DNA of 29,129 nt from a virus (lineage: Duplodnaviria > Caudoviricetes): positions 1 through 29,129 of the IMG/VR virus record IMGVR_UViG_3300020161_001148. One strand, given 5' to 3'. The notes below the pieces were generated by a model, which was given only the letters and a program-made list of their open reading frames with translations, was not told the origin of the DNA and did not search any database. Shown here in pieces: positions 18-23,900 of the stretch; the stretch's first letter is position 1, and the number at the start of each line of letters is the position of its first letter. The translations under genes were made by a program, and so were the position numbers.

Positions 18-236
18 TTACTTGATGAACTTGGTGTTGGCTTGGTCGATTGCGTCCATGCATTCAGCCAGCGTCTCGCTCACATTGAGAGCGGTGCCGT
101 CGTCGTGCATGAACTTGATGTCGGGGAACCACTGGGACTTGCTCGCCTTGCGAATCGTGTGGATGTACACGGCGGTCGCCTTGCGGATGTTCTTGATGGT
201 CTTCGTGTCGGGTTTGGGGGCGTTGGGTTTGGTCAT
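18..236 (-). CDS. hypothetical protein (72 aa)
   Basis: ATG preceded by CACCAAC, about 20 nt downstream of the -10 box of promoter P1; same strand as neighbours. Confidence 0.6.
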   Translation of the reverse strand: MTKPNAPKPDTKTIKNIRKATAVYIHTIRKASKSQWFPDIKFMHDDGTALNVSETLAECMDAIDQANTKFIK

Positions 237-256
237 GTTGGTGCCGTTAGGCAGGA

Positions 257-288
257 TAATAATACCATGGTTCTGTATATAGCAATGG
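257..288 (-). promoter_or_regulatory. early promoter P1 (CCATTGC-N14-TGGTATTATTA)
   Basis: Extended -10 (TGnTATTAT) plus upstream CCATTGC; same motif and spacing at 2216-2247 and 5778-5809. Confidence 0.75.
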
Positions 289-333
289 GTTGATTGATTG
301 CGTGTGCTGTGACTTCGAACACTGCAAGCACAT

Positions 334-365
334 CATGCGTGTACATGTATGCGTGTGTGTGTGTA
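334..365. repeat. 32-nt perfect purine/pyrimidine alternation including a (GT)n run
   Basis: catgcgtgtacatgtatgcgtgtgtgtgtgta. Confidence 0.85.
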
Positions 366-411
366 AGTTGCCTCGGCACACGAATTTTTTCAACCCTTTG
401 CGTATACAGGC

Positions 412-504
412 TTAGTAGAACCAGAGCCAGTCGTAGAACTGGGCGATTGCGTAGATGACTGCGATGATAGTCGCAACCACGAGGGGGAATTCCAAATATC
501 GCAT
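412..504 (-). CDS. 30-aa single-TM micropeptide (MRYLEFPLVVATIIAVIYAIAQFYDWLWFY)
   Basis: Hand-translated ATG 504 to TAA 412; one hydrophobic helix; lies 26 nt after the stop of the upstream gene. Confidence 0.55.
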   Translation of the reverse strand: MRYLEFPLVVATIIAVIYAIAQFYDWLWFY

Positions 505-530
505 AAAATTTTTTACCCTTCGGGTAATGA

Positions 531-956
531 TTAGGCGAGGTAGGCTTTCACCTTGGATACACAATCACCAATGCCACGAACTTTGAATCCGTGGTTGTAC
601 TGGCGATTGGCAATCTGGTTAATGGTCTTCCGAATGTGTTTACGGATAGAGTAATCAGTCTCCAGACATTGCTTCTGAAGGTCTTCAATCTGTCCGTCAT
701 ATTCGTGATACTTATCGTCAGCCTGTTTCCACTTGGCTTCGATAATGGTGAGGTAGGCTTCAGCCACAGAGCGGGAGCAATAGCCTTTGAGAATAGTCTC
801 AACGCCACGCTCCATCTTGTAGTACTTAACCTGTCGAGGTCTACAGTTGAACCCGTAGTAAACGGGGCTGTAGGAAGTATCAAGAGACTTGAGCGGATAA
901 CCTTCGCCCTCGTTCTTGAACTTCGGTGTGACCACACTGTCCTGTTGGTGTTCCAT
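531..956 (-). CDS. hypothetical protein (about 141 aa, coiled-coil middle)
   Basis: Start moved to ATG 956 (MEHQQ), preceded by TAACACACAT right after the stop of the upstream ORF. Confidence 0.7.
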   Translation of the reverse strand: MEHQQDSVVTPKFKNEGEGYPLKSLDTSYSPVYYGFNCRPRQVKYYKMERGVETILKGYCSRSVAEAYLTIIEAKWKQADDKYHEYDGQIEDLQKQCLETDYSIRKHIRKTINQIANRQYNHGFKVRGIGDCVSKVKAYLA

Positions 957-963
957 ATGTGTG

Positions 964-1230
964 TTAGGAGTGAGTGATGGTGATGGTGATGACCACAGTC
1001 TTGGTCTGCTTCGCATTACGCATGGCTTGTTCAGCCTTACGCTTAGCCCAACGAGCCTTATGAGCGATGCTCATGAGTTGTCGGGTGTGCTTACTGCGAA
1101 TGTAAAGACCACGACCATCGGTCTTCCGTTTGAACGGAGCCGCCAACGCTTCAAGTTTCGCTCGCATACGAATGCGGTCACGCATCTCAGCCATGTTGTG
1201 GGCAGGAGGGAGTTGAATCTTGGTACGCAT
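964..1230 (-). CDS. basic hypothetical protein (88 aa)
   Basis: TAATG coupling with upstream ORF; very R/K rich. Confidence 0.65.
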   Translation of the reverse strand: MRTKIQLPPAHNMAEMRDRIRMRAKLEALAAPFKRKTDGRGLYIRSKHTRQLMSIAHKARWAKRKAEQAMRNAKQTKTVVITITITHS

Positions 1231-1496
1231 TAGAGTGAATCGTTGTTGTTGATGGTGTCTTCAACATTGTGTTGGTCGTTACGCACAGCCACGCACCACT
1301 TCTTGTGGGTGAGGCTGATGCCTTCCATGAAGCCAAGAATGAAGTTGTGGGCTTCCATCTTGGTATCGAACTCGTAAACATCTTTGATGGTACCCGTGGG
1401 TTCCTCGTAGACATTAACGGTGAAGACATCGAACGGCTTGCTGATGTCGAGCGGAGGAGCGATAGGCTCCATGTTGATTCCGATGAGAGGTTTCAT
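1230..1496 (-). CDS. hypothetical protein (about 88 aa; start could be 1535)
   Basis: MKPLIG start overlaps (ATGA) the stop of a small upstream ORF; FDTKMEA beta-alpha motif of a kind common in small phage proteins. Confidence 0.65.
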   Translation of the reverse strand: MKPLIGINMEPIAPPLDISKPFDVFTVNVYEEPTGTIKDVYEFDTKMEAHNFILGFMEGISLTHKKWCVAVRNDQHNVEDTINNNDSL

Positions 1497-1570
1497 GGTG
1501 AATTGCCTTTGGACGCTGTGCTTTTGTTGATGCAATCGTGCAATCGGTTGTAGAGACCAATTGCATTCAT
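1493..1570 (-). CDS. possible 25-aa peptide MNAIGLYNRLHDCINKSTASKGNSP
   Basis: Fills the gap between two genes; starts 9 nt after the upstream stop, and its TGA overlaps the next ATG. Confidence 0.3.
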   Translation of the reverse strand: MNAIGLYNRLHDCINKSTASKGNSP

Positions 1571-1579
1571 GCTATCAAG

Positions 1580-2137
1580 TTAGGCGTTGTTGCCCTCCTT
1601 CTTCTCGTTCTGCTTGCTCAAGAACTGCTCGACCTCGCCAAGGGCGAGACGGAAGTTCTCGATGAGCATGTGGGAGTGAGTGACATGGCGAGCCTCCTTC
1701 CACCACGAGTCGAGACCCTTGTTGGAATGAGTGAGCATGGAACCGACTTCGAGAGCGACCAGCGACATGAGCGTGGACATGTCACGGACTTCGTAGTTCT
1801 GACGACCATCCTGCTTCACGCAGGTGATGCGATACTTGTACGACCAGTGGCGGTCATAGTCGTTCGCCTTGCAGTCGAGGGACTTCTGCGTGATGGTCGC
1901 CAAGACATTGATGGCTTTGCTGTGACCCGTGAAGACTTGGGTCTCGACATCATCCATGCTGTGGTTGCCGTTGTTGCTGTAGGTGCCAATGCTCAACACG
2001 ATGGACATCGTGCTGGCATACGAGAGCATCGCTTCGTTGAAAGCGAGCGTAGGCGAAGCGTTGTTGGCTTCGTCCGTGTTGTTGTTGATGTCGCTGTTAA
2101 CGGACAGCGACTTGCCGTTGGTTTGAGCATTGCTCAT
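1580..2137 (-). CDS. hypothetical protein (185 aa)
   Basis: First ORF after promoter P2 and its CAA-rich leader. Confidence 0.8.
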   Translation of the reverse strand: MSNAQTNGKSLSVNSDINNNTDEANNASPTLAFNEAMLSYASTMSIVLSIGTYSNNGNHSMDDVETQVFTGHSKAINVLATITQKSLDCKANDYDRHWSYKYRITCVKQDGRQNYEVRDMSTLMSLVALEVGSMLTHSNKGLDSWWKEARHVTHSHMLIENFRLALGEVEQFLSKQNEKKEGNNA

Positions 2138-2200
2138 GGTGTTGTTGTTTGGTTTTGGGTTCGCCTTCGCATCATGCCTCGCCAGTAGTTGGCTCAGTCA
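2138..2200 (-). promoter_or_regulatory. 5' leader: UGACUGA-GCCA(ACUAC)UGGC hairpin, GCA-N3-UGC-GAAG, then CAA-rich tract to ATG
   Basis: Near-identical motif with a compensatory base change at 5706-5762. Confidence 0.6.
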
Positions 2201-2215
2201 CTCGCTCCAGCAAAT

Positions 2216-2247
2216 TAATTATACCAGTGTTCTGGTATGTGCAATGG
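2216..2247 (-). promoter_or_regulatory. early promoter P2 (CCATTGC-N14-TGGTATAATTA)
   Basis: Consensus extended -10 TGGTATAAT; repeated motif. Confidence 0.8.
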
Positions 2248-2341
2248 ATGAACCATTGCGGAAAGAAGAAGCGTGTTGCTTCGTGGGGTGTCGCATAAAG
2301 CGTTCCACATCCACAACACGCTGAATAGCCTCTACAATAAT

Positions 2342-2419
2342 TTATCTTTTGTCGTCAGATAGAACTGCGACTAAAACAATTACTGCGGTGATGGCACCTA
2401 CAATGTCTACCGCCGACAT
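2342..2419 (-). CDS. 25-aa single-TM micropeptide (MSAVDIVGAITAVIVLVAVLSDDKR)
   Basis: ATG overlaps the DUF932 gene stop (TAATG); hydrophobic helix with charged C-tail. Confidence 0.6.
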   Translation of the reverse strand: MSAVDIVGAITAVIVLVAVLSDDKR

Positions 2420-3381
2420 TAGTTGAGTGCTGGCGTATTTTTCTGGATGGTGTCGAAGTAATCAGCGTCATGGGTCATGCGAGCAAGCGATTCCAATGAC
2501 GACTGATTAATGCGTTCGCTAATCTCAACCTGTCCTCGGTCATCATAGTGGCGAGTGATTCGCTCAGTGATGGCGTTGTACAGATTGTACATGTTGCGAC
2601 TGCGGTCTTCCTCATACGATGGGCGTTGCCACACCTGCGACACTTCCTTGTAGAAGCGTTCGCTCATCACCTTGCGGTGAACGAGCGATTGCAGGATGAC
2701 TTCGCCTTGTCGCTGGAGGATTGGGCGTTCAGCCATACAGCCAAACAGCACAAGAGATTCTTCGAATCGAGCCACCGCTTGGGCAACGCCAAGCGATAGG
2801 AACTCAAGACTGATTACTCCCTTGTGTCGTTTGTTCGCAGAGATTTCGTTCTGCAACGAGGTCATGCCGTTGGTGCAAACCAAACGAAGCATTCCCACAT
2901 TGAAACGAGCCTGCGAACTTCCGTCATGCGAGTTGCGAACCGTGATTCGCATCGCAAGGTCATCGCCCTTCATCAACGAACCAGCCTTAACCTTGCGGAC
3001 ATAATTGCCGAAGGTGAAGGTAGTTGCCATGCGAGCACCGTGATTCCAAACACTGGAGTGTTCCTCCCAGTGTGACAAACCTTGAAGGACAAACGCCTTC
3101 TTGGTCTGGTTCAGCAAGTCACCATGCTGAAGGATGGTGTAGTTGTCGCTGACATTGCCAACGACATAACCATTATCATCACGGCGGTTGCACCAGTACT
3201 CAGTGGGAGCACCATCGCTAGTGAATAGCGGCTCTTGATGTACAGTGAAGTACGGATTGTTGTCTGACTTTTCGACACCATCGAAGTACTGTTCAAGCAG
3301 GTTCTGATGGTTCTTGCGGAGCGTGTCCTTAACGGACACAGGGGAGTTACCCCCGTTGGAGTGAGCGTTGTAGTTGCTCAT
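2419..3381 (-). CDS. DUF932-family phage/plasmid protein
   Basis: Motifs VSDNYTILQH, GARM, NSHDGS...RLVCTNGM, RH, YNLYNAITE typical of DUF932. Confidence 0.85.
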   Translation of the reverse strand: MSNYNAHSNGGNSPVSVKDTLRKNHQNLLEQYFDGVEKSDNNPYFTVHQEPLFTSDGAPTEYWCNRRDDNGYVVGNVSDNYTILQHGDLLNQTKKAFVLQGLSHWEEHSSVWNHGARMATTFTFGNYVRKVKAGSLMKGDDLAMRITVRNSHDGSSQARFNVGMLRLVCTNGMTSLQNEISANKRHKGVISLEFLSLGVAQAVARFEESLVLFGCMAERPILQRQGEVILQSLVHRKVMSERFYKEVSQVWQRPSYEEDRSRNMYNLYNAITERITRHYDDRGQVEISERINQSSLESLARMTHDADYFDTIQKNTPALN

Positions 3382-3410
3382 GGTGTTGTTGTTGTTTTGG
3401 TTTTGGGTTC
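3382..3410 (-). repeat. CAA-rich translation leader, near copy of 2138-2162
   Basis: GAACCCAAAACCAAAACAACAACAACACC-ATGAGCAA vs GAACCCAAAACCAAACAACAACACC-ATGAGCAA. Confidence 0.8.
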
Positions 3411-3972
3411 AGCCGTTAGCGTCATTGCCTTCGGCAGATTCGGTTTTGTCCTTGCGGACACGGGAGTCATAAAAACGAGGCTTAGTTGCCTCGGCATCGG
3501 CAATCTTTTTGATTGCGTCCCACAGCGGGATGTCGGCGTACAATTCGCTGTCATCGTGGTTACGAACGAATCTCGATAGAGTGTCGCCCGATTGACGAGA
3601 CAGAGCCTTGATGAGCCAATCATTCCACTCACGCTTGGACTTGTGCGAAACATTAGTCCACAGTCCCCACAGATTGATTAGGTCAGTGGGCTTGAGGGAA
3701 TGTTTCTCTCCATCGACATGCCATGTGTTGGTCCATCCAAGGTCGTTGAGAATCGCAAGTCTGCGGTGAGCCTCTTTGAAGTTGTCTTCATTGAGCGGAT
3801 TGTTTGCAGTGTCGTACTGCAACGCTAACTGAGTCCACACCAAGCAAGTTGCTTCGACCCAGTTGCACTTTTCGCCAGCATGGTCTACATACTGGAAGTA
3901 CTCGTGAGGAAGTTCTTTGCCGTGATGTTTAGCCGTGTCTTCATTACACGGCAGATGCCAATCGAGACTCAT
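3409..3972 (-). CDS. hypothetical protein (187 aa, Trp-rich)
   Basis: ATGA overlap with upstream ORF; WGLWTNVS motif. Confidence 0.8.
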   Translation of the reverse strand: MSLDWHLPCNEDTAKHHGKELPHEYFQYVDHAGEKCNWVEATCLVWTQLALQYDTANNPLNEDNFKEAHRRLAILNDLGWTNTWHVDGEKHSLKPTDLINLWGLWTNVSHKSKREWNDWLIKALSRQSGDTLSRFVRNHDDSELYADIPLWDAIKKIADAEATKPRFYDSRVRKDKTESAEGNDANG

Positions 3973-4310
3973 ACGATTTCTTCTCCTTCGCTATCGAGGC
4001 GGTCTTGGAAGAGCATCGCATGTTCATCGACTACTCGTGTGACAGTTACATCGATGTCATCGATGACTGTGTTCTCACACAAGTAAACAAGTTGATGCGT
4101 AGGCCCGTGTGATTCGGGCGTTAGCATCACGCTCCAGTGGTCTGGATTAGAGAGCCACTGATGCACATGTTGTTTTAGTTTAAGATTCCCCGTGAGGAAT
4201 CCGCTGTCTACCATCTCATCGTTATTATTATTGGCGAACGATGCTCGCATACGCACTCGGATGGTGACATCCGTATAGGTCGTGCTGACCATATTGATTT
4301 CGTCTGACAT
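3969..4310 (-). CDS. hypothetical protein (113 aa)
   Basis: A/C-rich leader before ATG; coupled to neighbours. Confidence 0.7.
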   Translation of the reverse strand: MSDEINMVSTTYTDVTIRVRMRASFANNNNDEMVDSGFLTGNLKLKQHVHQWLSNPDHWSVMLTPESHGPTHQLVYLCENTVIDDIDVTVTRVVDEHAMLFQDRLDSEGEEIV

Positions 4311-4315
4311 GTTGG

Positions 4316-5068
4316 TTATGTATTTTGGTTTGGGTTAACGAAGGCTCCTAGTTTAGATTCGGCTTTCGTAGCATGGCCTTTACTACGCAGTCCGATGACA
4401 AACCCTTTACCTTTGTGGTCGGTGTGGGGGTCAAGGAATCGAAGGTCATTGATGTCTCCATCAAGTACCTTGTATCCATTCCAAGTCAGTGGAAGTTCTT
4501 CTTCACGCTTACACGCAAAGACAACGGCAACATTGTATCCCTCTTGCAAAACGCTCAGACTATTATCTAAGCGACCTTCTGAGTGAGAGAAGGTGAGGTG
4601 GTAGCGTTCTGGGAATCCATTACGCCGCCGCTTCTGATGCATGAAACTTTCCATTCTGCGATAATCCTTTGTGTAATCGTAGAATTGAGTCTCGTGGAAT
4701 GTGTCTATTACCGAAGTGAAGTGCTTGTCGAAGATGTCACTCGTACCATTCAGTCGCACACAAGGCTTGAGGCGGTGCTTCTTGCTGGTCGCAATGTGAT
4801 TCTTGATTTCACGCTTCAGTTGTTCGATGAACTTCTCTCTTTCTTCATGCCAGAACTTTGTCCGCTTGATGCGGGCTTGGTTGATTGACTTGAATACGAG
4901 AGAGTGTCCAGAGTTGTACAGACAAAGTCTGCGACACTGTCGTGTCGCAAACTTGCATGTGTTGACAACGCCCGATGCATCTGAAGGAGCCAGATACATT
5001 ATTGCGGTACGCCATCCGACTTTGTTGCCCTTGACTGTCTTTGCGTTATTGAATGTTAGAAGTTTCAT
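4316..5068 (-). CDS. GP88-like protein with CX6CX3C (radical-SAM-like) cluster
   Basis: NAKT-KG, LAP, CKFATRQCRRLC, VRLNGTSD, QFYDYTK, YHLTFS, DGDINDLRFLDP, GLRSKG motifs. Confidence 0.8.
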   Translation of the reverse strand: MKLLTFNNAKTVKGNKVGWRTAIMYLAPSDASGVVNTCKFATRQCRRLCLYNSGHSLVFKSINQARIKRTKFWHEEREKFIEQLKREIKNHIATSKKHRLKPCVRLNGTSDIFDKHFTSVIDTFHETQFYDYTKDYRRMESFMHQKRRRNGFPERYHLTFSHSEGRLDNSLSVLQEGYNVAVVFACKREEELPLTWNGYKVLDGDINDLRFLDPHTDHKGKGFVIGLRSKGHATKAESKLGAFVNPNQNT

Positions 5069-5705
5069 CAGACTTCTTATGTTCAATTGCAATGTGCGAA
5101 GCGTTCACAAACAGTTGGTGAATCGCCTTGGCAACGAGGGTTGGAAGTTGTTTTTCTAGGACAAACTTCTTAATCTCATCGGACAGCATCGTGGCAAACC
5201 AATCACGCTTGAGTTCTTCTGAAACTCGGTCAGCGAGGTCAGAGTGCTTAACGACTTCGTCATCGAGGAGTTCCTCGGACTTCAGCATGATGTCATCGAC
5301 ATCAAGGTCGTTGCGAGTAAGGACATCGTGGTCAGAGAGAGCAGTCTCCCAGTCCAACTTATCCATTACCTTATCAGCGGCTCTGTCCCAATCGACTGCT
5401 TCACGCAGTTCGTAGTCCCAATCTTTGCTAGAGATTGCGTCATCAACTGCGGACTCAACGGCATCAGAGAAGTCATAGTCAGTAAACTTCTCTTCGATTG
5501 CTTCTGCGATTGCTTCTTTCAGTGCGTCACTTGCAGTGGCGGTATGCTCACGGATTAGTTCAAGCACTCGCTCTTCCGTGATAGCAGGAGCGTGTGCGTT
5601 TGCGTTTGCATCAACTGGCTTAACGCTTATGGGCGTGAAGGTGATGTTGATGTTGTGGGTCATGTGCATCTCGTTAAGGAATGCACTTACTTCTTGTTCC
5701 GTCAT
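5046..5705 (-). CDS. acidic helical hypothetical protein with repeated D-[WF]-[DES] motifs
   Basis: First ORF after P3; about 50 D/E vs about 20 K/R by hand count. Confidence 0.8.
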   Translation of the reverse strand: MTEQEVSAFLNEMHMTHNINITFTPISVKPVDANANAHAPAITEERVLELIREHTATASDALKEAIAEAIEEKFTDYDFSDAVESAVDDAISSKDWDYELREAVDWDRAADKVMDKLDWETALSDHDVLTRNDLDVDDIMLKSEELLDDEVVKHSDLADRVSEELKRDWFATMLSDEIKKFVLEKQLPTLVAKAIHQLFVNASHIAIEHKKSDETSNIQ

Positions 5706-5762
5706 GTTGTTGTTTTTGTTTTGGTTGGCTTCGGCACCCTGCCCCAGTCGTTGGGTCAGTCA
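5706..5762 (-). promoter_or_regulatory. 5' leader: UGACUGA-CCCA(ACGAC)UGGG hairpin, GCA-N3-UGC-C-GAAG, then CAA-rich tract
   Basis: Second copy of the motif at 2138-2200, same distance from the -10 box. Confidence 0.6.
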
Positions 5763-5777
5763 GAACCTCGGCTGAGT

Positions 5778-5809
5778 TAATTATACCACGGCTCCACAGA
5801 ACGCAACGG
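5778..5809 (-). promoter_or_regulatory. early promoter P3 (CCGTTGC-N14-TGGTATAATTA)
   Basis: Consensus extended -10; repeated motif. Confidence 0.8.
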
Positions 5810-5838
5810 GGGTGGGTCGTGCGGAATCACGATTCTGG

Positions 5839-5898
5839 GGAAAGGCGGCACAATGCCAGCAATGTCGAGGTCACTCTCGTTTGCTGAATCGCCTTTTC
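5839..5898 (+). other. nested inverted repeats (multi-stem structure)
   Basis: GGAAAGGCG/CGCCTTTTC, CAGCAA/TTGCTG and CGAG/CTCG nested; followed by AAAATTTTT. Confidence 0.5.
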
Positions 5899-5935
5899 AT
5901 GAAAATTTTTGGCGAATTTCCCTTTTGTGCCAAAA

Positions 5936-6388
5936 TTATTTCTCGGCTGGGAGGTCGATGATTTCTCCCTCTAGCATTTTATTGAGATGCTCGTGAGAGA
6001 TTTTCAGTCTGCTCTCCACGATTACAGTCGGCTGGTCTTGGAGCACGGCAATCTTGTCAATAAGAATAGCCAAGGAAACTGGCATCATGCCAATCGGGAT
6101 GTCATCGATTTCCGTATTGAGCCTGTGAGCACCCTTCATTACGATTTTCTTAAACAAGTCAGCCGTCTGCTTCTTGTAGGAGCCGATATCGATGTCTGAG
6201 TCACCCATCTGCTGGCGTACAGCGACCACCGTATGGCTGGATACCTTAACTTCCTCTACGATTTCCTTCTGAGTATGGCCCTCCTGCGTCATCCATTCAA
6301 TCTTCTGACGCTTTTCTGGGTCAAGTTTTTCCTGTTGACCTTCTTTACTATCGCTCTTGACACGCTCGTACTTGGATTCGTATTCCAT
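5936..6388 (-). CDS. HTH DNA-binding protein; possible terminase small subunit or regulator
   Basis: HTH (EGHTQKEIVEEVKVSSHTVVAV), helical core, C-terminal QPTVIVE...IIDL tail resembling TerS. Confidence 0.6.
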   Translation of the reverse strand: MEYESKYERVKSDSKEGQQEKLDPEKRQKIEWMTQEGHTQKEIVEEVKVSSHTVVAVRQQMGDSDIDIGSYKKQTADLFKKIVMKGAHRLNTEIDDIPIGMMPVSLAILIDKIAVLQDQPTVIVESRLKISHEHLNKMLEGEIIDLPAEK

Positions 6389-6402
6389 GGTTAACACATA
6401 AT

Positions 6403-10493: not shown

Positions 10494-10565
10494 TGCCCTG
10501 TAGTTTAACGGATAGAACAGGCGGTTTCTACCCGCCTAGTCTTGGTTCGATTCCAAGCGGGGCAA
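10494..10565 (+). tRNA. tRNA-Arg(TCT), no encoded CCA
   Basis: Acceptor TGCCCTG/CGGGGCA, D-arm GTTT/GAAC with GGATA, anticodon stem GGCGG/CCGCC with loop TTTCTAC, T-arm CTTGG-TTCGATT-CCAAG. Confidence 0.9.
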
Positions 10566-14669: not shown

Positions 14670-14972
14670 TTATTTTAGAAATCTGTTAATCAGTTTAGAT
14701 GTGACGAACTCAACAAGTTCTGGAGCGATAGCACCACTGATGCTGAACAGCACAGCCTTGTACATCGGGTCCATGTCAATTGGGTACAGTGCAAAGTAGG
14801 TAAGCACACCAACAATGCCACCTGCGGCAATCTTCTTAACCCAGACTACCCAGTGGTATTTCTGGGCAGATAGCATAAGCCTAGCCGCCGCACCCATTGC
14901 TCCAAGGATGCCTACAATCCAACCGCCCTTGATAAACTCAGAGGCTACTTCCTGTAGGCTACGGTCACTCAT
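14670..14972 (-). CDS. holin (LydA-like, about 3 TM)
   Basis: 100 aa from MSDRSL; three hydrophobic segments, basic C-terminus; start overlaps the end of the giant gene. Confidence 0.75.
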   Translation of the reverse strand: MSDRSLQEVASEFIKGGWIVGILGAMGAAARLMLSAQKYHWVVWVKKIAAGGIVGVLTYFALYPIDMDPMYKAVLFSISGAIAPELVEFVTSKLINRFLK

Positions 14973-17900
14973 CGAACATGCGAGCCACCGCATCCTCCTC
15001 GTTTTCAAAGACTCCAGCCAAGACACCGCTGGGGAAGAACACCTTAAACTTGGTATCCCATCCTCTTTGATATCTGTTCTGTTCACGGATAATGGTGAAG
15101 CCTTCATTGTTAGTTACGGCAGTCCAGTCCTGCATGACAGGCTCCATACCCTTGCCGTTGTAAATCGGACCTTCCTCGACAACGGAGAACGATGTCTTGT
15201 TATCGATAGACTTCGCTCTTTCGTCCTTGGGAGGCTGGTCGTGTCTGGAGATGTCCGCTGTGCCAGTCACGATTTCGCTTGGCTTAGCCTCTTGTCCAGT
15301 GACGGGGGCAACGCCCTGCTGTTCGTATTCGAATCTAGCACGAGCCAGACGCTCCTTGGCGGCTACAACGCTGGGGTCTTTATACCAAGAACCCTTGCTG
15401 AAGATGTATTCTCCGCTGGAATGCAGTCTGTTCCAAGTCTGGCTGTTAGGGTAGATTACAATCTGACGCTTAGCACCAGTGTCGGGATTGGAAAGCCAAG
15501 TGACATCGGGGTATCTTCCAATCTCAGCGAGGTTGGTTTCAAGTGTTCTTGCGATTTCTGGAGAAAGCATGTTGGCATGCGTCTCAAGGAATGAGCCAGT
15601 GAACGAAGCGAGTTCGTGGGCGGGAAGGACTCTGGACTGGTTCTGGCTTCTAGCCATCAGTTCGACACGCTTGATGTCGTCATGGAACATTCTGATGCCA
15701 ACCTGCAATCTCTGTAGGTCGGGGGCAGTCATGATGTGCGAAGCCTTAAGGTCAACGAGACCATCGGCAGACTTGTAGCCAGCAAAGAACAACTTGTAAG
15801 AGGAGCCTTGCTTGAAGGCGTGGAACATCCCGTTGGGGGTTCTGAACAACGCATCATTCGGGTTAGCGACAGGCACATCAAGAGTCTTTCCGTCAGAGCC
15901 AACGACAGCCTTACCGTACTCCATGTTGGGAGACAGCAGTTTAAGCGAGTCATCGATAGCCAGCACATTGTCTCTGGCTTGGGGTCTGCTGTTCCAGAAT
16001 CCTTCTACCTGCTTCTTGAAAGACTTGATGGCAGTATCCGTCTGAGCCAGTTCAAGGAAGAGTTTCTTGGTGTCTTCAAGCAACTTCTTATGAGTGCTTT
16101 CCAACTGCTTACGCTTGAACTCTTCGGTGATGGATTCCTCGTAGACCTTCTTCTTCTCAGCCTGTCTTGTAGCCTTGTCGTCTTGAATCTTGCGAATGAT
16201 GTCATCGACCATCGTCTTCTTGCCCTGTGTGTTGTGAGCCAAGAATCTAGCCGCAGACTCCCAGTCGTCACCAAAGATAGACTGAAGGTTCTTTCCTTCG
16301 TTTCTGGTAAAGGCTTGGATAATGGATTCTCTGTAAAGCGGGTTCTCTACCAGTTCGGTTACGGGGATGTATCTCTTGTCCTTGGGGTCGTTGACCTTGG
16401 CAAGCAGGTGGAAGGCGAAATCAAGTTCTTCAAGTTTCAGTTTGCTGAAGTCAATCTTGCCATCCTCACGCAGGTTTTCTGGAAGCATCAGTTCTGCAAG
16501 GCGTTCCTTGCCAGAGATTCTGCCAATGGCATGCTCAATGACTTCTGGTCTTTCAGAGATTTCCTTGAGGTAAAGGTCAAAGGCTCTGTCTAGGAAGGTG
16601 CCTTCGACTTCAAGTTCCTTAATCTTCTTTGTTTCACGGACACGCTTAGCGTAGCCGAACTTAGCAAGTTTCTCTTGGTGACCAAACTCAGCCTTGATGT
16701 CGAACTTCAACTGAGAAGCCATGTCTGGGAAGTACGCACGAAGAAGGGCGTAACCTTCTTGGTCGATAGCAATAGGCATACCAGAACCCTGCTTAGCAAT
16801 CTGTCCTTCAACCTGCGACTTTCTTGCAAGTGCGGCACCGAAGATGTCAATCTCACGGACACCACGCATGGCAAGGAACTTGTTTCTGGTCATCTCACCA
16901 CGAATGATTTCGGAGATGATTGGGTTGGTAGTAGTGACACCGCCAACGATGGCTCCGTATCTGTAGCCCTGCGAAGACGAGTCTTGGACACGCTCGGATG
17001 TCTGTCTAGACTCCCACTTTGTATAGGAAGAGGCGGTTGCAATGTCCGCTCTGCTAGGATGGAATTCAGAAAACACGCTTGGGAATACGGCGGCTTCTTG
17101 AGATGTAGGAGCAAACTTCTTAAGAGGGTCTCCAGACATTCCTTCTTCCTGCCAACGCTTGAGCAGAGCAGATGTCTTAGAGTTGGGGTCAATGAAACTG
17201 AACTCGCCAGCAGTCTCGTTAATCGTGGCAATCTCGGCGTTAACACGCTCAAGTTCAGCCGCTCTAAGGATTTCCAAAGACGATTGAACTTCCTTGATGT
17301 ACTTAACATACACCGTCTTCATCTCTTCTGGGAGCAAAGCGTGGGTAGCGTCAATCTGCTTTAGTCTGTAGGCTCTGGCTTCCCTGTACTTCTCTTCGAC
17401 AATCTTGTTAGCCTTGTTGGCTTCAAGAACTCTGTCTGTTCCTTCAAGTTGTGCGATGACGGCATGCTTGATTCTGTTCTCAGAGAGGGCAGTCATGTAG
17501 TCCTTCTCAATCTGAGACCACATATCTACAGCCACCTTGAAGTCTTTTGCTTCTGGGCTTGCTGTGTGGTGCTCAAGGAATTCTTCCGCAGTTCTGATGT
17601 TATCGCCCATGCTACGAATCATTTCCTCTCTGCTAAGAGGACCGTCAGCAGACTTGATAGGCAGAAGACTAGCGTCAGTCTCAAGGACCGTCTTAAGGTC
17701 AAGTTTATCAAGAGCGGTAGGGTCGCCAAACTTCTTGTAGGTTTCGGAAAGGTCAGAAAGCAGGAGTCTGAATCTACGCATGTACTCCTCTGTTGACACA
17801 AACGGTTCCTTTTCAGCATAAAGTTCGGTGGGATTACCAAACTTATCAAGAATAGGTTCAGACAGGGGGAGGTATCTCGGCTTTTTAACCTCACGCTCCT

Positions 17901-20900
17901 TGCCCTGCAAACCAAGGCTTTCAGCCATCAGTTGTTCAACGGTTCCAATAGCGACATCATCTTCCTTGTCGGGGAACTTCTTATCGATTCTGGCAACTTC
18001 TCTTTCGTAGGCTCTACGCTCTTCCTTAGAGAGCACCTTGCCGCCACCACTTCTACCAGTGAGAAGCGTACCGCCAGTGGTGATGCCCTTAAGACCTTCA
18101 AGGACTTTGTCAGAGCCGCCTTTTGCGGCAAACAACTGACGCTCAAGCCAGTTCATCTCTCTCTCAAGAGCATCAAACTCGTCACGGAAAGAACCAGTCG
18201 TTCCGTTTTCGATAAGGTCTAGAATCTCTCCGTTCTTTGTCATCTCAGTATGACCAGCAACAACCTGCTCAATCGCTCTGCTTACGACTTCTCTAGGAGG
18301 GGCGGTCTCAGTATCGGAGAGTTTAGCGTACTCCCCTTCGTTGACCATGTCGCTATCCCAAAGGTCTCTTTCATACATATCCAAGTCTTCCTTGGTTTCG
18401 AACATTTTTCCTTCACCAACAAGGGCATCCTGTGCTTCCTTGTTCTTAAGAAGACCTTCCGTTGTCAGATAGAATAGGTGCTTGTCAACCTCCTTGCCCG
18501 TTTCATCAATCAAGTCCTTAAGTCTCTTGGATTCGTTCTTAAGGTATCTAGGTGTAGCATCCTTAAGCCCACGCTTAATCAATTCTTCTCTAGCACCAGC
18601 CTCAAGTTCACGAATGCGTTCCTTGATTTTCTTGATTCTTTCTGGGTTTCTCTTGAGCACTTCCCAAATCTTTTTCTTTTCCTTAACGAAGTTGGCAGAC
18701 ATCAAAGCCTTCATCTGCTTCGTAAGTCTTGCGTGGAAGTTAAGGGTGGTGTCGATGTCGATGTAATCTGCATCGTTCATCTTGGCGAGCATGTCAGTGA
18801 CCTGCTTAGGGGTGTCGTAGTGAGTGACCCATTCAACGCCAGCCATCTGACCGTTCTCGTCAGTCACGATTCTGTACAGGTCTCCAATGGCCTTTTTGCC
18901 TTTATTGAATTCGCCCTGCGATTCACGGGCAATCGTCTCAATGTTCTTCATTCTGCCACCCTTGACAGGCACCTTGGACTCTGGCTCAAGTCTTGTAAGG
19001 ACATCACGGCGGTTGTCCGATGTGACAAGAAGAAGGTTACCAGCACGGTAGACAGCCAGTTTCTTGAACTCTGCGGCGGCCTTAGAGCCAGTCACATTTA
19101 CGGTGACGGGAATCTTTCTCTGATTAAAGCCCTTTCCAGAGGGAAGGTTAGGATTGTAGTTAGGGTTATCCTCAAATGTCTTCTTCGTCTGCTTAAACTC
19201 TGTGGCTTCCTTTACCGCTTCATCGTACTTAATGCCAGTGCTAGACTGAATCATAGCAAGGGCGGCAGTATAGGCATCATTGCCAAGTCTCTGTGCGGTC
19301 TTGAACAGCACCTCGTCAGCATGGAAATCTCCAGCATCGATAGTCGCAAGACGCTTGGCTTCTTCAATTGTCTTAAAGTACTTACCATCGATATGCCAGC
19401 CGTTAGCCTTGTAAGCGGCGTATCTAGGCTGTTGTTTGCCAAGGGTAAGTTCACCAATGTCCTTGAGGGTGATACGATTAATCGGTCCTCTAATCTCTCC
19501 AGACACTAGTTCGTTGAAATTTCTGTAGGTCTGAGTCTTGGTGTCTTCATTGAGACCCTTATCTCTGGACCAGTAGTAAGTGTTTTTTGCCTTATCAAAG
19601 GTAATCTCGCTGAACGGAATCACTTTGATTTCCTTTCCGTCAATGGCTTTGGCGATTACATACTTAGGCTTCTTGTCGATGTAGATAATTCTGCCATCGG
19701 TTTCCTCAAACTTGTTATCTTTAAAGGAGGTGAATTCGCTCCATCTCTTGATGGTTCTGATTTCTCCAGTAAGTCCAAGGTCAAACTCCTTGCCATCCTT
19801 GCCGTCTCTTTCGACCTCACGCATTTTAACGCCCTTGTAGTCATTGTTCTTGGCGTATTCAATGATGTCAGCGTCAGTAGCCACATCTTCCTCGATGCCA
19901 AATCTCTTACGCAAATCGGCAAGTGCTCTGGCAAGTTCTCTGTCAGACACCTTAACTCCATCAAAGGTAGTGAACACTACTCTCTCCTTCTTGACCTGCC
20001 ATCCCTTGGGGAACTTAAGTTGGTCAACCGTATCAATTGTCTTCTGGGCAGGAACTTCAAGTTTCACATAGTGACCAGTAGCATCAAGAACTTGCTTCTT
20101 TGAATCGCCAGACCAGTTCATCGAGATGAAACCGTAGTCCAGCATCTTAGCGTAAGCCGCCTTGAGTCTGACATCGGTAACCTGCTCGGTTTCCTTGAAC
20201 ATCTTCTCAAGGCTGGCAAGTTTCTGCTTGATGGCTGGGTTGTTGCTATGCTTCTTGTAGGTTCTAGCAAGCGACTGCATCAGAACAGTAAATCTCTGGA
20301 GCGGAGTTTTGATTCCGTCCTTCTTAATGCTACGCTGGAGAACCTTGTAGGCTTCGTCCATGGCATCACGGTACTTGCCGCTTTCATCAGCGTTAGTAGT
20401 TCTCGATTCTGGGTCCGTGACCTGTCGTTCTTCCGTAACTCGCTTCTTGAACGACTCTGGCATGGTAACGCCGTCTCTTTCGAGGGCGATTTCAGTCATC
20501 TGAGCCAGTTCTGGGTCTTGTTCTGAGGCTCTCATCGCTTCAATCTCAGCGATTCTAGCATCGTAATCCATCTGGAGGATTTCGTGGACCTTCTTTTCCG
20601 CTAGGTCAGCCTTCTTCCAAGTGTTTACAATAGGGTCTTCACCTTCAATCGCTTTAGTCAGTTGAAGAATCTTAGAGCGGAGTTCGTTGCTGAAAGTTCT
20701 GGCTTCAGTTGTGTCCTTCTTCTTGGAATGGGTCTCAGCCGCCTTGATGTCTTCGTCATTCTTTTCCAGTTTCTTCTGGTAAAGAGCAAGGTCGTCCAAC
20801 TGTTGCTTTCTGAACTTAGCATGAGTCTCAAGGTTGTACTTGTTGAAAGTTTCAATGACATCTTGCAGACCAGTAGTGGTCATCTGCTTTCTTACATTCG

Positions 20901-23900
20901 TAAGTTCACCAACATTGAATACATCCATTGCCCCGATTGGGTCGGGTCTTCCAAGGTAGTACTGGGCAAGACCAGCCATCATCTCATAGCGAAGAGAATT
21001 GTCCTTTGAGATTTCAAAACTCTTGGCAGTACCCTGCTTGCTGATGGGTCTGGCAGGTTCAAAGTCGTTAGGATTAGATGTAGTTCTCAGAACATTGACC
21101 TGCTTGGTCTTTGTCGAGGGAGTGGCACCAAGAACCTCGTCAGCCACATCGAACATCTTGTAAGACGCAAGCATCTGAACGAGTTCGTTTCTGATAGCAT
21201 CAAGTTCAGTATTGTGCTTGGCTTCAGCCTTACGCTTCTGTTCCCAAGTAGCCTTGATGTCTGCCTTGGTCTTGGCAATAGACTGCTGGAGTGCGTATCT
21301 ACGCTTCCAGTTTTCCATCAGAGCCATGTCAATGTCAGCGGCAGTTCTCTGCCTAATGTCACGAGGAAGAACACCACGCTCTCTGTAGGCTTGGTACTCA
21401 ATAGGAGATAGAGACTGAAGTACGCCGAAGGAAACCTTGCCGCCCTTGGTGATATTGATGGGAGCATCTACACCAAAGACGCTGTTGTACATGGAACGAT
21501 ACAGTTCCGCTTCAGTCCAGCCCTTGAATTCTGGAGTCTTCAGAAGATGACCAATGAACTGCTGTCTTGATGTTTCGTTTTCCTTTCTGACTTCAGCCCA
21601 CCAAGAGGATTCTTGAATGAGTTGATTCTTCTGGGAGGCAGAGCGGTTAACCAGTTTCTGCTGGGCAGGAGAAAGGACTTTGGTTTGAGGCTGTACAACG
21701 ATGTCAGCGGCGGCAGTGACGGGGATTTCGTTTTGAGTTACTGCGGTGATGGCACTAAGTTTCTCTTGAAAAATTTCAACAACAGCGTCTTTAGGGTTTG
21801 GAAGAGTCTGAGTAACTTTACCATAAGCCTCAGAAAGAGCCATAAACTCATTATAAAGTTTCAAGCGTTCTGGGTTCTTTCTAATCTCTTCTCTGCTAAG
21901 TCCTTGTGCGGCAAGAGCCTTTTCTTTTTCTGAAAAAGCCTTCTCTGCCGTACGAGACTTGCCAAATGATTCATCCATTTTCTTTTGGTTTTCCGCAACA
22001 ACTCTGTCGTATTCAACAGTCATTTGCTCGATGGTTCTTTCTGCAATTTTTCTTGCTTCTGGAGTCATGAGGGAAACCTGTTTCTGGAACATCAAGTAAT
22101 TAGCACCTGTATTCTTTGTATCATCAAAGAATGAAAGCCCTCTGCCTTTCATGGATTGTCCAAAACTTCCAAACATAGATACCGCTCTAGACATTCCCAT
22201 TACCTCCTCGCTAAGTTGATTTGTCTTAGGCGGCTCGGAAGGAACTCCAGTTCTGGCTCTGGTTCTTTCACCAAGAGACATACCCTTAGGAATGATTGTG
22301 CTAGACTGCTCTTGCTCACCAAGTCTTGCTCTCGTTCTGTCACCAATTCTGGTGCTCTTAGGGGAGAAGTTTCCAGTGATAAAATCAATGGCAGAGATGT
22401 CAGTCTGTCTGAAGTTCTGGAAATCAGTAAACGCAACGACTCTTTCACCTTCTGCCGTTCTTACGGCAACGGCTTTGTAGCCCATAGACGCAACCTTGCC
22501 TAGGAAAGTTCTATCCAGTTCCTTGAGGGAATGGATTCCGTCACTGTCAACAAGGTCAAGAACCTCGCTTGCACGAAGTCTCATGTAGCCTTCAGTTAGG
22601 GTGCTATGGTTCTGGTTAGCACGGTCCTTATCGAACCAAGCGTAATGAACTCCATCAACCTTGTCGCTGGCAAACAGTCGGTAAGGCTCGCCGCTAGGAC
22701 TCTTAAAGGTAGTTTCGTCTTGGAGCACACGCTCGGACGGACTCAGTTCTCTGCCAGTGTGGTCACGAAGAGCCTTAGAGGACGGTGCAAAGTTGCCCTT
22801 GTTAAGAGGGTGGGCATGCTTGTGGTTGTAGTAGAAGCCTTCACCATGGAGGTGCTTAGGCTGGTCAAGGACACGGTCTACACGGAAAGAAGAAAACACC
22901 ATGAAGCCTTCGTTCAGAGGGCCACCAATGTTCTCTCCGTCACGATTCTTCTTGAAGGGAACCTGCAAGTCAGACGGGTAATGGAAACCCTTCTCCTGCA
23001 TGACTTCTGGAGAATGTCTGGAAGGTCTGGCACCAATGATGCCGTTAATGATGTCACGCTTTGCTCTTCCTTCGGAGCCACCACCAAAGAAGTCAGCACC
23101 AGCCATGGCAATATCGCCAAGGGAGTAGTTGCTAAGAAGTCTCTTGATGTCGTGGTGAATCTCTTCTTCCGATTCGTAGTACTGCTTAACCGTGGCAGAA
23201 CTGATGGAGCGAGGAGAGTCGTGCCTACGCATATGGTTGTAGGCGTATCTGACACGGCGGTCCAAAGCCTTCATGTCCATGCCATGAACGACAAGGACAG
23301 GCTTACCTACGAGGTAAACGACATCTGGGTCATCGATTTCAAACTCTTCACGAAGAGCCTTAGTCATTTTTCTACGCTCAAACTTAAGGTTCATCTCGTA
23401 GGGGATGATGTCACGGGTCTTTTCTCTGCCGCTGACACGCTCGTTACCAACTCCAGTAGGAGAGCCTTCCTTGGTATAGGAATAGCCCTGCTGTGTGTCG
23501 CCCTTGTAGGTAAATCTAAGGATGTTGTTTCCGTCAGAACCCTTGTTGTGAATGGTTCTGTTGAAAGCCGCCATTCTCTTTACAACGCTGGCAGGTAGGA
23601 ACTCGCTGAACAGGTTAACTTCAGCGTCAGTCATGTAGCCCTTGATGGTGTACTCTACAGGACCATAAGCCTCCGACTCCTTCCGCATGGTATCAAGGTC
23701 GATGTCCCATTCTCTTTCCGTAGCCAAAGCCTTCTGTTCTTTTCTGGAAAGATTAGCCTGTTTCTCAGCCTCTCTGAGAAGTTTTCTCTGTCTCTTCTTG
23801 ATTTCGTTTTCAACCTTCTTGGCTTCGGCTTCAAGTTCCTTGGCCTTCTTGCTCTTAGGAGCAAACGAACCTTCTGGAGCAGTGGCAGAAGCCTTGACTT

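Follow-up and report, generated by a model that had tools for sequence, protein, structure and literature searches.

Predicted 5'-terminal hairpins behind the early promoters of a phage and its relatives, with a probable role in protecting early mRNA

Two leader segments of this phage, previously singled out as copies of a candidate cis-acting RNA motif (UGACUGA plus a covarying hairpin), are each predicted to form the tip of a single irregular hairpin, 45 to 49 nt long, that starts at the inferred +1. We think it probable that this hairpin is a 5'-terminal stem-loop that protects the early mRNA and keeps a ribosome landing pad open. The feature common to all leader sizes in the relatives is, by folding prediction, a paired 5' end, and the leaders likely represent an ordinary protective trick in a new sequence variant, not a new signal.

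The window, by which we mean the whole stretch of DNA analyzed, is the complete virus record of 29,129 bases, with an estimated completeness of 68%. Its genes include those for RusA, an exonuclease VIII-like protein, an O-like initiator, a DnaC-like loader, an Erf protein, a holin-like protein, and a tRNA-Arg. The left 5.8 kb of the minus strand carries mostly genes with no assigned function, together with GP88 and DUF932 genes, and its sigma-70-like promoters and gene content suggest that it is the early region. The relevant features are as follows.

1580 to 2137, minus strand: opening gene of the P2 operon, encoding 185 aa without a family match
2260 to 2322, minus strand: terminator-like long hairpin with a U/C-rich tail, which ends the P3 operon just upstream of P2
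2419 to 3381, minus strand: DUF932 gene (PF06067, profile match), the last long gene of the P3 operon
4316 to 5092, minus strand: GP88-family gene (PF17338, profile match) of the P3 operon
5046 to 5705, minus strand: opening gene of the P3 operon, encoding 219 aa without a family match
5936 to 6388, minus strand: helix-turn-helix (HTH) DNA-binding gene upstream of P3 (weak terminase-small-subunit matches, E 0.01 to 0.07)

The terminator-like hairpin covaries, its stem being changed on both sides in relatives. Within the P3 operon, a hairpin followed by a U-run lies inside a gene (3476-3495, minus strand); all six of its third codon positions are kept in 5/5 homologues, compared with 51 to 81% elsewhere in the same gene, and the 5' half of this hairpin recurs at 366-377. 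The tRNA-Arg(UCU) gene, at 10494-10565 on the plus strand, is found in all seven related loci scanned, and the largest protein, of 3,486 aa (14965-25425, minus strand), is matched by no Pfam, PHROGs, or NCBIfam entry, its best PDB match having E = 1.

The pattern TTGC-N14-TGG-TA(A/T)AT recurs at three promoter-like sites (5806, 2244, and 285), each of which is accompanied 75 to 80 bases upstream by an AGGC-N6-GC-like word behind an A-tract.

259 to 285, minus strand: P1 promoter-like site, recognized by sequence pattern as for P2
2218 to 2244, minus strand: P2 promoter-like site of the extended -10 type (TTGC, 14 nt, TGG, TATAAT; start inferred)
5780 to 5806, minus strand: P3 promoter-like site, recognized by sequence pattern as for P2
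363-373, 2321-2331, and 5884-5894, minus strand: AGGC-N6-GC-like words

The TTGC element lies just 15 bases before the -10 hexamer, so that a standard scan with 16- to 18-nt spacing misses P2 and P3, and this short-spaced element may mark the host lineage. At P2, the promoter spacer and -10 box contain a 7-bp inverted repeat (2221-2238, minus strand), which is kept in relative L008 and is not general. In L046, L088, and L092 the +1 hairpin is made of the AGGC-N6-GC-like word, which is possibly a DNA or RNA binding site.

To place the transcript start, we relied on 19 leaders of the window and its close relatives, which were picked by the promoter pattern and a downstream A/C tract and not by a hairpin. 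The seventh base after the -10 hexamer is a purine in all 19 (17 G, 2 A), and the sixth is a pyrimidine in 18 of them. Because a pyrimidine-purine step is the usual step of transcription initiation, the seventh base is taken as +1. An RNA run, X1 (share 0.05), gave four short contig pieces, which carry neither end nor strand information; three lie in or adjoin DUF932 and none covers a leader.

Both strings of the preliminary description are present on the minus strand (2164-2200 and 5729-5762), and UGACUGA does start at the 18th base after TATAAT in both the P2 and the P3 leader, a spacing that the start of the hairpin at the inferred +1 accounts for. The apical 4-bp stem with its 5-nt ACNAC loop is likewise predicted in both leaders, with pair probabilities of 0.91 to 1.0 (P2) and 0.62 to 0.69 (P3). 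The small second hairpin, GCA-NNN-UGC, is not predicted: its pair probability is 0.00 in P2 and at most 0.013 in P3, and the two-hairpin structure (-6.2 and -5.7 kcal/mol for P2 and P3) is worse by 15 and 9 kcal/mol than a single long hairpin (-21.2 and -14.5 kcal/mol). The motif had thus been drawn too narrowly, for what was regarded as differing intervening sequence is the 5' arm, which pairs with the GCA..UGC..GAAG segment. The predicted leader hairpins are as follows.

243 to 252, minus strand: minimal hairpin of the P1 leader, with a 3-bp stem and a 4-nt loop, whose first base is the inferred +1 G
2163 to 2211, minus strand: P2 leader hairpin, 49 nt, containing 2164-2200; the inferred +1 G at 2211 pairs with C 2163
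5728 to 5773, minus strand: P3 leader hairpin; the inferred +1 is A 5773, and G 5772 pairs with C 5728

UGACUGA corresponds to nucleotides 12 to 18 of the P2 hairpin and there comprises two stem bases, a bulged A, a 2-bp stem, and a tandem GA. The P2 leader folds better than all 200 of its shuffles (z -2.74), whereas P3 does no better than its shuffles (z -0.13), with a centroid structure that holds only the apical part. Many G.U and G.A pairs occur in the P2 hairpin, whose longest uninterrupted run is four pairs and which is weak as DNA (-6.7 sense, -4.0 antisense). In the window, UGACUGA alone occurs at chance level (six found, 6.7 expected). The overall likeness of the P2 and P3 leaders is above chance, and their local score of 32 was matched by only one of 19,888 random pairs of window stretches.

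Searches that used DUF932, the opening gene of the P3 operon, and the HTH gene as queries gave, with the window included and identical or near-identical copies dropped, 19 distinct promoter-leaders from 10 records: 13 long leaders and six 10-nt hairpins. The hairpin is retained in all 13 long leaders as a rod of about 41 to 51 nt, and a G-C closing pair at +1/+2 is accepted by all 13 at a cost of 0.0 (12 leaders) or 0.3 (one leader) kcal/mol. The letters drift. Basal pairs vary among phages (GC/GC, GU/AC, GU/GC, GG/CC, GA/UC), and the seven substitutions that separate the window P2 from its closest relative fall at five unpaired positions and at two where U.G becomes C-G. The elements that had been put forward as conserved are not: UGACUGA is present in just four of the 13 long leaders, the ACNAC loop in five, and GCA-NNN-UGC in three, and the GCA..GAAG segment and the full motif occur only in the window's own two copies. 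What recurs is a core consisting of a stem, a bulged A, two pairs, tandem purine pairs, 3 to 4 bp, and a 5-nt loop, which is found in nine of the 13 rods and of which UGACUGA is merely the 5' strand; the window P3 hairpin is its most degenerate copy, with one of three outer pairs. In an unguided alignment of nine rods, the eight core pairs are 91.7% paired, against 32 to 46% in slid controls, and six show changes on both sides, a count that kinship among the rods inflates. The claim of a covarying RNA structure in two early-operon leaders stands as to there being such a structure, although the fold first drawn is mostly wrong and its conserved elements were misidentified.

The most likely source of the likeness between P2 and P3, including UGACUGA, is common ancestry or a recent copying of the promoter-leader cassette, and not conservation of a recognition word. 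The local score between the two leaders is 32 in the window and 29 in relative L006, and they are not alike in L002, L004, and L008 (12 to 14 for the long pairs). In the window and in L006, the P3 leader resembles the P2 leader of its own genome more closely than it does the P3 leaders of most other phages, which hints at copying from one promoter to another. The L006 P3 leader forms a near-perfect 15-bp stem.

The HTH gene was used as an anchor for locating the same promoter slot in more distant relatives, and phages with an HTH protein about 60 to 66% identical supplied 22 more leaders from 18 records. At this slot, 15 of 17 distant-clade leaders are folds of about 120 nt and two are hairpins of 14 to 20 nt, so that the 25 leaders behind the HTH gene in the two clades comprise six rods, four hairpins of 10 to 20 nt, and the 15 folds of about 120 nt. 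The operons behind rods, small hairpins, and 120-nt folds share genes, GP88 and DUF932 among them. Most of the 120-nt folds are predicted to be three-way junctions, in which one arm carries an ACUAC loop in five records and other loops elsewhere, and another arm ends in an A/C-rich loop of 11 to 14 nt. The junction leaders lie in the following records.

L036:9590-9731, L040, L054, L079, and L091-L093: junction leaders
L037:9582-9715, L038, L041, and L047: junction leaders
L043:9602-9739 and L044: junction leaders
L053: junction leader
L081: junction leader

RNAalifold predicts 37 pairs for a seven-member junction subgroup, 15 of them with changes on both sides; covariation was counted in this subgroup only, since MAFFT could not align 10 mixed distant-clade leaders. 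Two junction subgroups have a GAAA/AGUA base that we take to be loop-E-like. The hairpin is not universal, because in a more distant group, examined by eye, leaders of about 15 nt leave no room for it. In these records (L096-L123), a TTGACT promoter-like site lies downstream of the HTH gene, and the leader of about 15 nt ends in a pyrimidine run, TCCTTCCT, before the AUG; this run resembles the anti-Shine-Dalgarno sequence itself.

A paired 5' end is predicted throughout the series. Folded from +1 to the AUG, with the start set 7 nt after the -10 box, all 19 close-clade leaders have at most one unpaired 5' base, compared with 54% of shuffles. Among the distant-clade leaders, 21 of 22 have at most two (51% of shuffles), a comparison that is partly circular in that their -10 boxes were chosen partly by an AAGC start. 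Together, 40 of 41 leaders have at most two unpaired 5' bases, against 51 to 63% of shuffles, although the 41 are related and hence not independent. When 30 nt of coding sequence is added, the result is weaker (24 of 34 leaders with at most two unpaired bases, control 52%, four rows being one base off), since a basal stem of 2 bp is a weak competitor in the energy model.

The other end of the leader is predicted to be open. The window tracts and one related internal element are as follows.

2138 to 2161, minus strand: unpaired A/C-only tract before the AUG at 2137, with no Shine-Dalgarno sequence and A at -3
5706 to 5727, minus strand: unpaired A/C-only tract before the AUG at 5705, with no Shine-Dalgarno sequence and A at -3
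3412 to 3435, minus strand: small hairpin within the operon, containing a tandem AA/AA loop and leading into an A/C tract and the AUG of DUF932 (weak model match, E 3.7)

The window hairpins end about 22 to 25 unpaired, A/C-rich bases before the AUG, and the rods of the clade end 20 to 29 nt before it. In the close-clade leaders as a whole, 16 to 29 unpaired bases, almost all A and C, precede the AUG, the window P1 having six. A Shine-Dalgarno 4-mer occurs in none of the 41 leaders, and A stands at -3 in all 19 close-clade leaders. In the long leaders, the last 18 nt before the AUG are 84 to 100% unpaired, so no switch is apparent. The internal hairpin at 3412 to 3435 has no promoter pattern, though its design is that of the leaders, and the same promoter-less arrangement of hairpin, A/C tract, and AUG is found before DUF932 inside operons of both clades. 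Internal hairpins with a GAAA/AGUA loop stand directly before the DUF932 A/C tract in L037 (before 13328), L043 (before 12623), and L057 (before 12819); these promoter-less hairpins could protect processed 5' ends.

A plausible sequence of events is that host RNA polymerase starts 7 nt after the extended -10 box and that the first 41 to 51 nt then fold back, as predicted and as the covariation of the core bears out for that part, to pair the +1 or +2 base. If the host has decay enzymes of the familiar kinds, known enzymology suggests that the paired end would leave RppH, RNase E, or RNase J no single-stranded 5' end to act on. The A/C tract would stay unpaired as a ribosome landing site in a Shine-Dalgarno-poor context, and the purine-rich internal loops and bulges may keep the helix stacked while interrupting perfect double strand. 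The P3 message would be protected at both ends, its operon being closed by the covarying terminator-like hairpin.

RNase E and RppH require single-stranded 5' termini, which explains the effect of stabilizing 5' structures, and RppH of Bacillus subtilis needs at least two unpaired bases (PMC3997798, in part). Most distant-clade junction leaders have two unpaired 5' bases, the minimum stated there for RppH. The leaders resemble the 5'-terminal stabilizing stem-loops of the ompA/papA type (PMC3997798, in part) in that the stem begins 0 to 2 nt from the predicted 5' end, structure is kept over sequence, and the ribosome region is unpaired. They differ from them in being phage-borne, in standing at every early promoter, in ranging from 10 to about 125 nt, in having tandem purine pairs, and in carrying an A/C tract in place of a Shine-Dalgarno sequence, and their function is predicted. 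Among the considerations against protection of the 5' end are that only about 10% of Escherichia coli mRNAs are affected by loss of RppH (PMC3997798, in part) and that a plain stabilizer does not explain the bulged A and tandem purine pairs of nine of the 13 rods or the 37-pair junction.

Those unexplained elements bear on two other readings. First, the apical core could be bound specifically by a protein of the phage or its host, or by RNA polymerase as put of phage HK022 is, and could tune elongation or translation of the early operons; we consider this unlikely. The core lies behind both P2 and P3, in the nine long leaders that have it, with covarying flanks, and is directly behind early promoters, as is putL (PMC9378689, in part). 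The likeness of same-genome leaders in the window and L006 is what coevolution with one partner would give, but L002, L004, and L008 show no such likeness, and the core is missing from four long leaders and every short one. Terminator-like hairpins do occur between early genes in the junction-bearing L037, L043, L044, L057, and L081, as they also do within operons of the minimal-hairpin phages L046 and L088, and over the 20 loci scanned, with both leader sizes represented among distant phages, leader size and in-operon terminators show no link. In the close clade, a clear intergenic terminator-like hairpin stands just before the next promoter in all six loci scanned, and within the window P3 operon no clean intergenic terminator was seen before its end, only the in-gene hairpin and U-run at 3476-3495 being flagged. 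The rods also end 20 to 29 nt short of the AUG, and no antiterminator family was found among 31 window proteins scanned in a record that is 68% complete.

HK022 put has two stem-loops, spans about 70 nt, and lies behind early promoters (PMC9378689, in part). The present leaders are like it in occurring as a similar pair, one copy behind each of two early promoters in a single phage, and unlike it in being a single hairpin of 45 to 49 nt that a 10-nt hairpin replaces in relatives, and the put-like proposal of the preliminary description is weakened to that extent. Its boxA/boxB alternative fails, as UGACUGA is largely paired and kept in only four of the 13 long leaders. The boxB loop is of a GNRA-like type. 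Lambda nut (PMC3177189, in part) is similar in having a short word beside a small stem-loop near an early promoter; here, unlike in nut, the word is mostly paired, the loops are not GNRA-like, and there is no boxA-like match. No protein of an N-like family appeared among the 31 scanned, although a small N is easily missed and the record is 68% complete.

Second, rod and junction together might constitute a new class of phage leader RNA that, beyond shielding the 5' end, docks RNA polymerase for put-like antitermination or loads ribosomes without a Shine-Dalgarno sequence, a reading we hold to be about as doubtful as the put-like one. If correct, it would mean a new class of phage cis-acting RNA with three leader sizes, in an uncultured host lineage.

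Early mRNAs of phage T7 have RNase III sites, which are irregular hairpins upstream of ribosome sites. Processing of this kind, with cleavage setting message lifetime, is a rather improbable role for the rods. Their length of 41 to 51 nt and internal loops fit RNase III substrates, the L006 P3 stem is near perfect, and the RNase III sites of SP82 early mRNAs, cited in PMC4838370 (in part), are of the same kind, being irregular and placed ahead of ribosome sites in the early region. The leader hairpins differ from the SP82 and T7 sites in lying at the predicted 5' end, where there would be no upstream product to protect, in having short helices (the longest pair run of the P2 rod is four), and in shrinking in the same slot to 10 nt, too short for RNase III cutting.

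It is about equally improbable that the hairpin acts in translation only, as an insulator that sequesters G/U-rich leader bases, leaves the A/C tract open for Shine-Dalgarno-independent initiation, and has no effect on decay. The promoter-less hairpins before DUF932 in both clades and the absence of Shine-Dalgarno sequences from the 41 leaders agree with it; however, an insulator need not begin at +1, yet 40 of 41 leaders do so within two bases, and a shorter leader would serve equally well. Such a role is compatible with protection of the 5' end. It is highly improbable that the hairpins are small self-cleaving ribozymes or that they act at the DNA level as promoters of a virion RNA polymerase: CUGA and GAA words occur, and the 3,486-aa protein has the size of N4-type virion polymerases, but no Rfam match covers the leaders at E up to 10, there is no hammerhead core, the giant protein resembles nothing in Pfam, PHROGs, or NCBIfam (PDB E = 1 only), the promoters look sigma-70-like, and the P2 hairpin is weak as DNA.

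The family appears to be confined to these phages in the collections searched. As the preliminary description had supposed, it is absent from Rfam: at the gathering score, the whole window matched one tRNA only, positions 200-6400 gave four matches at E up to 10, none over a leader, and four distant loci gave none over a leader at E up to 1. The exact motif had no match in IMG/VR, a scan from which the window's own record was possibly left out. The promoter and A/C tract pattern matched 12 loci, four from the clade and eight, taken as chance, with no homologue of 15 window proteins; the pattern of core and tract matched 15, six of them known clade leaders and nine unrelated (seven inside long open reading frames). 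The covariance model that had been called for (nine rods; 46 sources) recovered 11 strong matches, all close-clade leaders; those used to train it are bound to match, and no other sequence scored below E 0.03. Neither pattern nor model searches found the core outside the close clade. Scans for K-turn box C and a hammerhead core were negative, and nothing matched a boxA 8-mer within two mismatches.

The literature searched on phage 5' stabilizer hairpins and SPO1 sites contains no account of this leader family. The searched part of the supplements to PMC10690425 gave no match, and the remaining supplements may contain these motifs. GTDB genomes and cultured phages contain no relative of the HTH protein. 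The DnaC-like protein has matches of 24 to 33% in cultured phages and, at 43 to 63%, on three contigs under three unrelated metagenome-assembled genome labels; these matches were not used as host evidence. The HTH and DnaC-like searches gave no cultured relative and no host.

If the hairpins do protect the 5' end, the phage would give every early transcript a cap in the form of a paired 5' end, together with a Shine-Dalgarno-free A/C landing pad, and the series of 10-, 45-, and 120-nt leaders at one promoter would offer a test set for relating leader structure to mRNA lifetime. The junction form in the relatives may be of larger interest, as a covarying RNA absent from Rfam and with a complexity beyond what a plain stabilizer would need.
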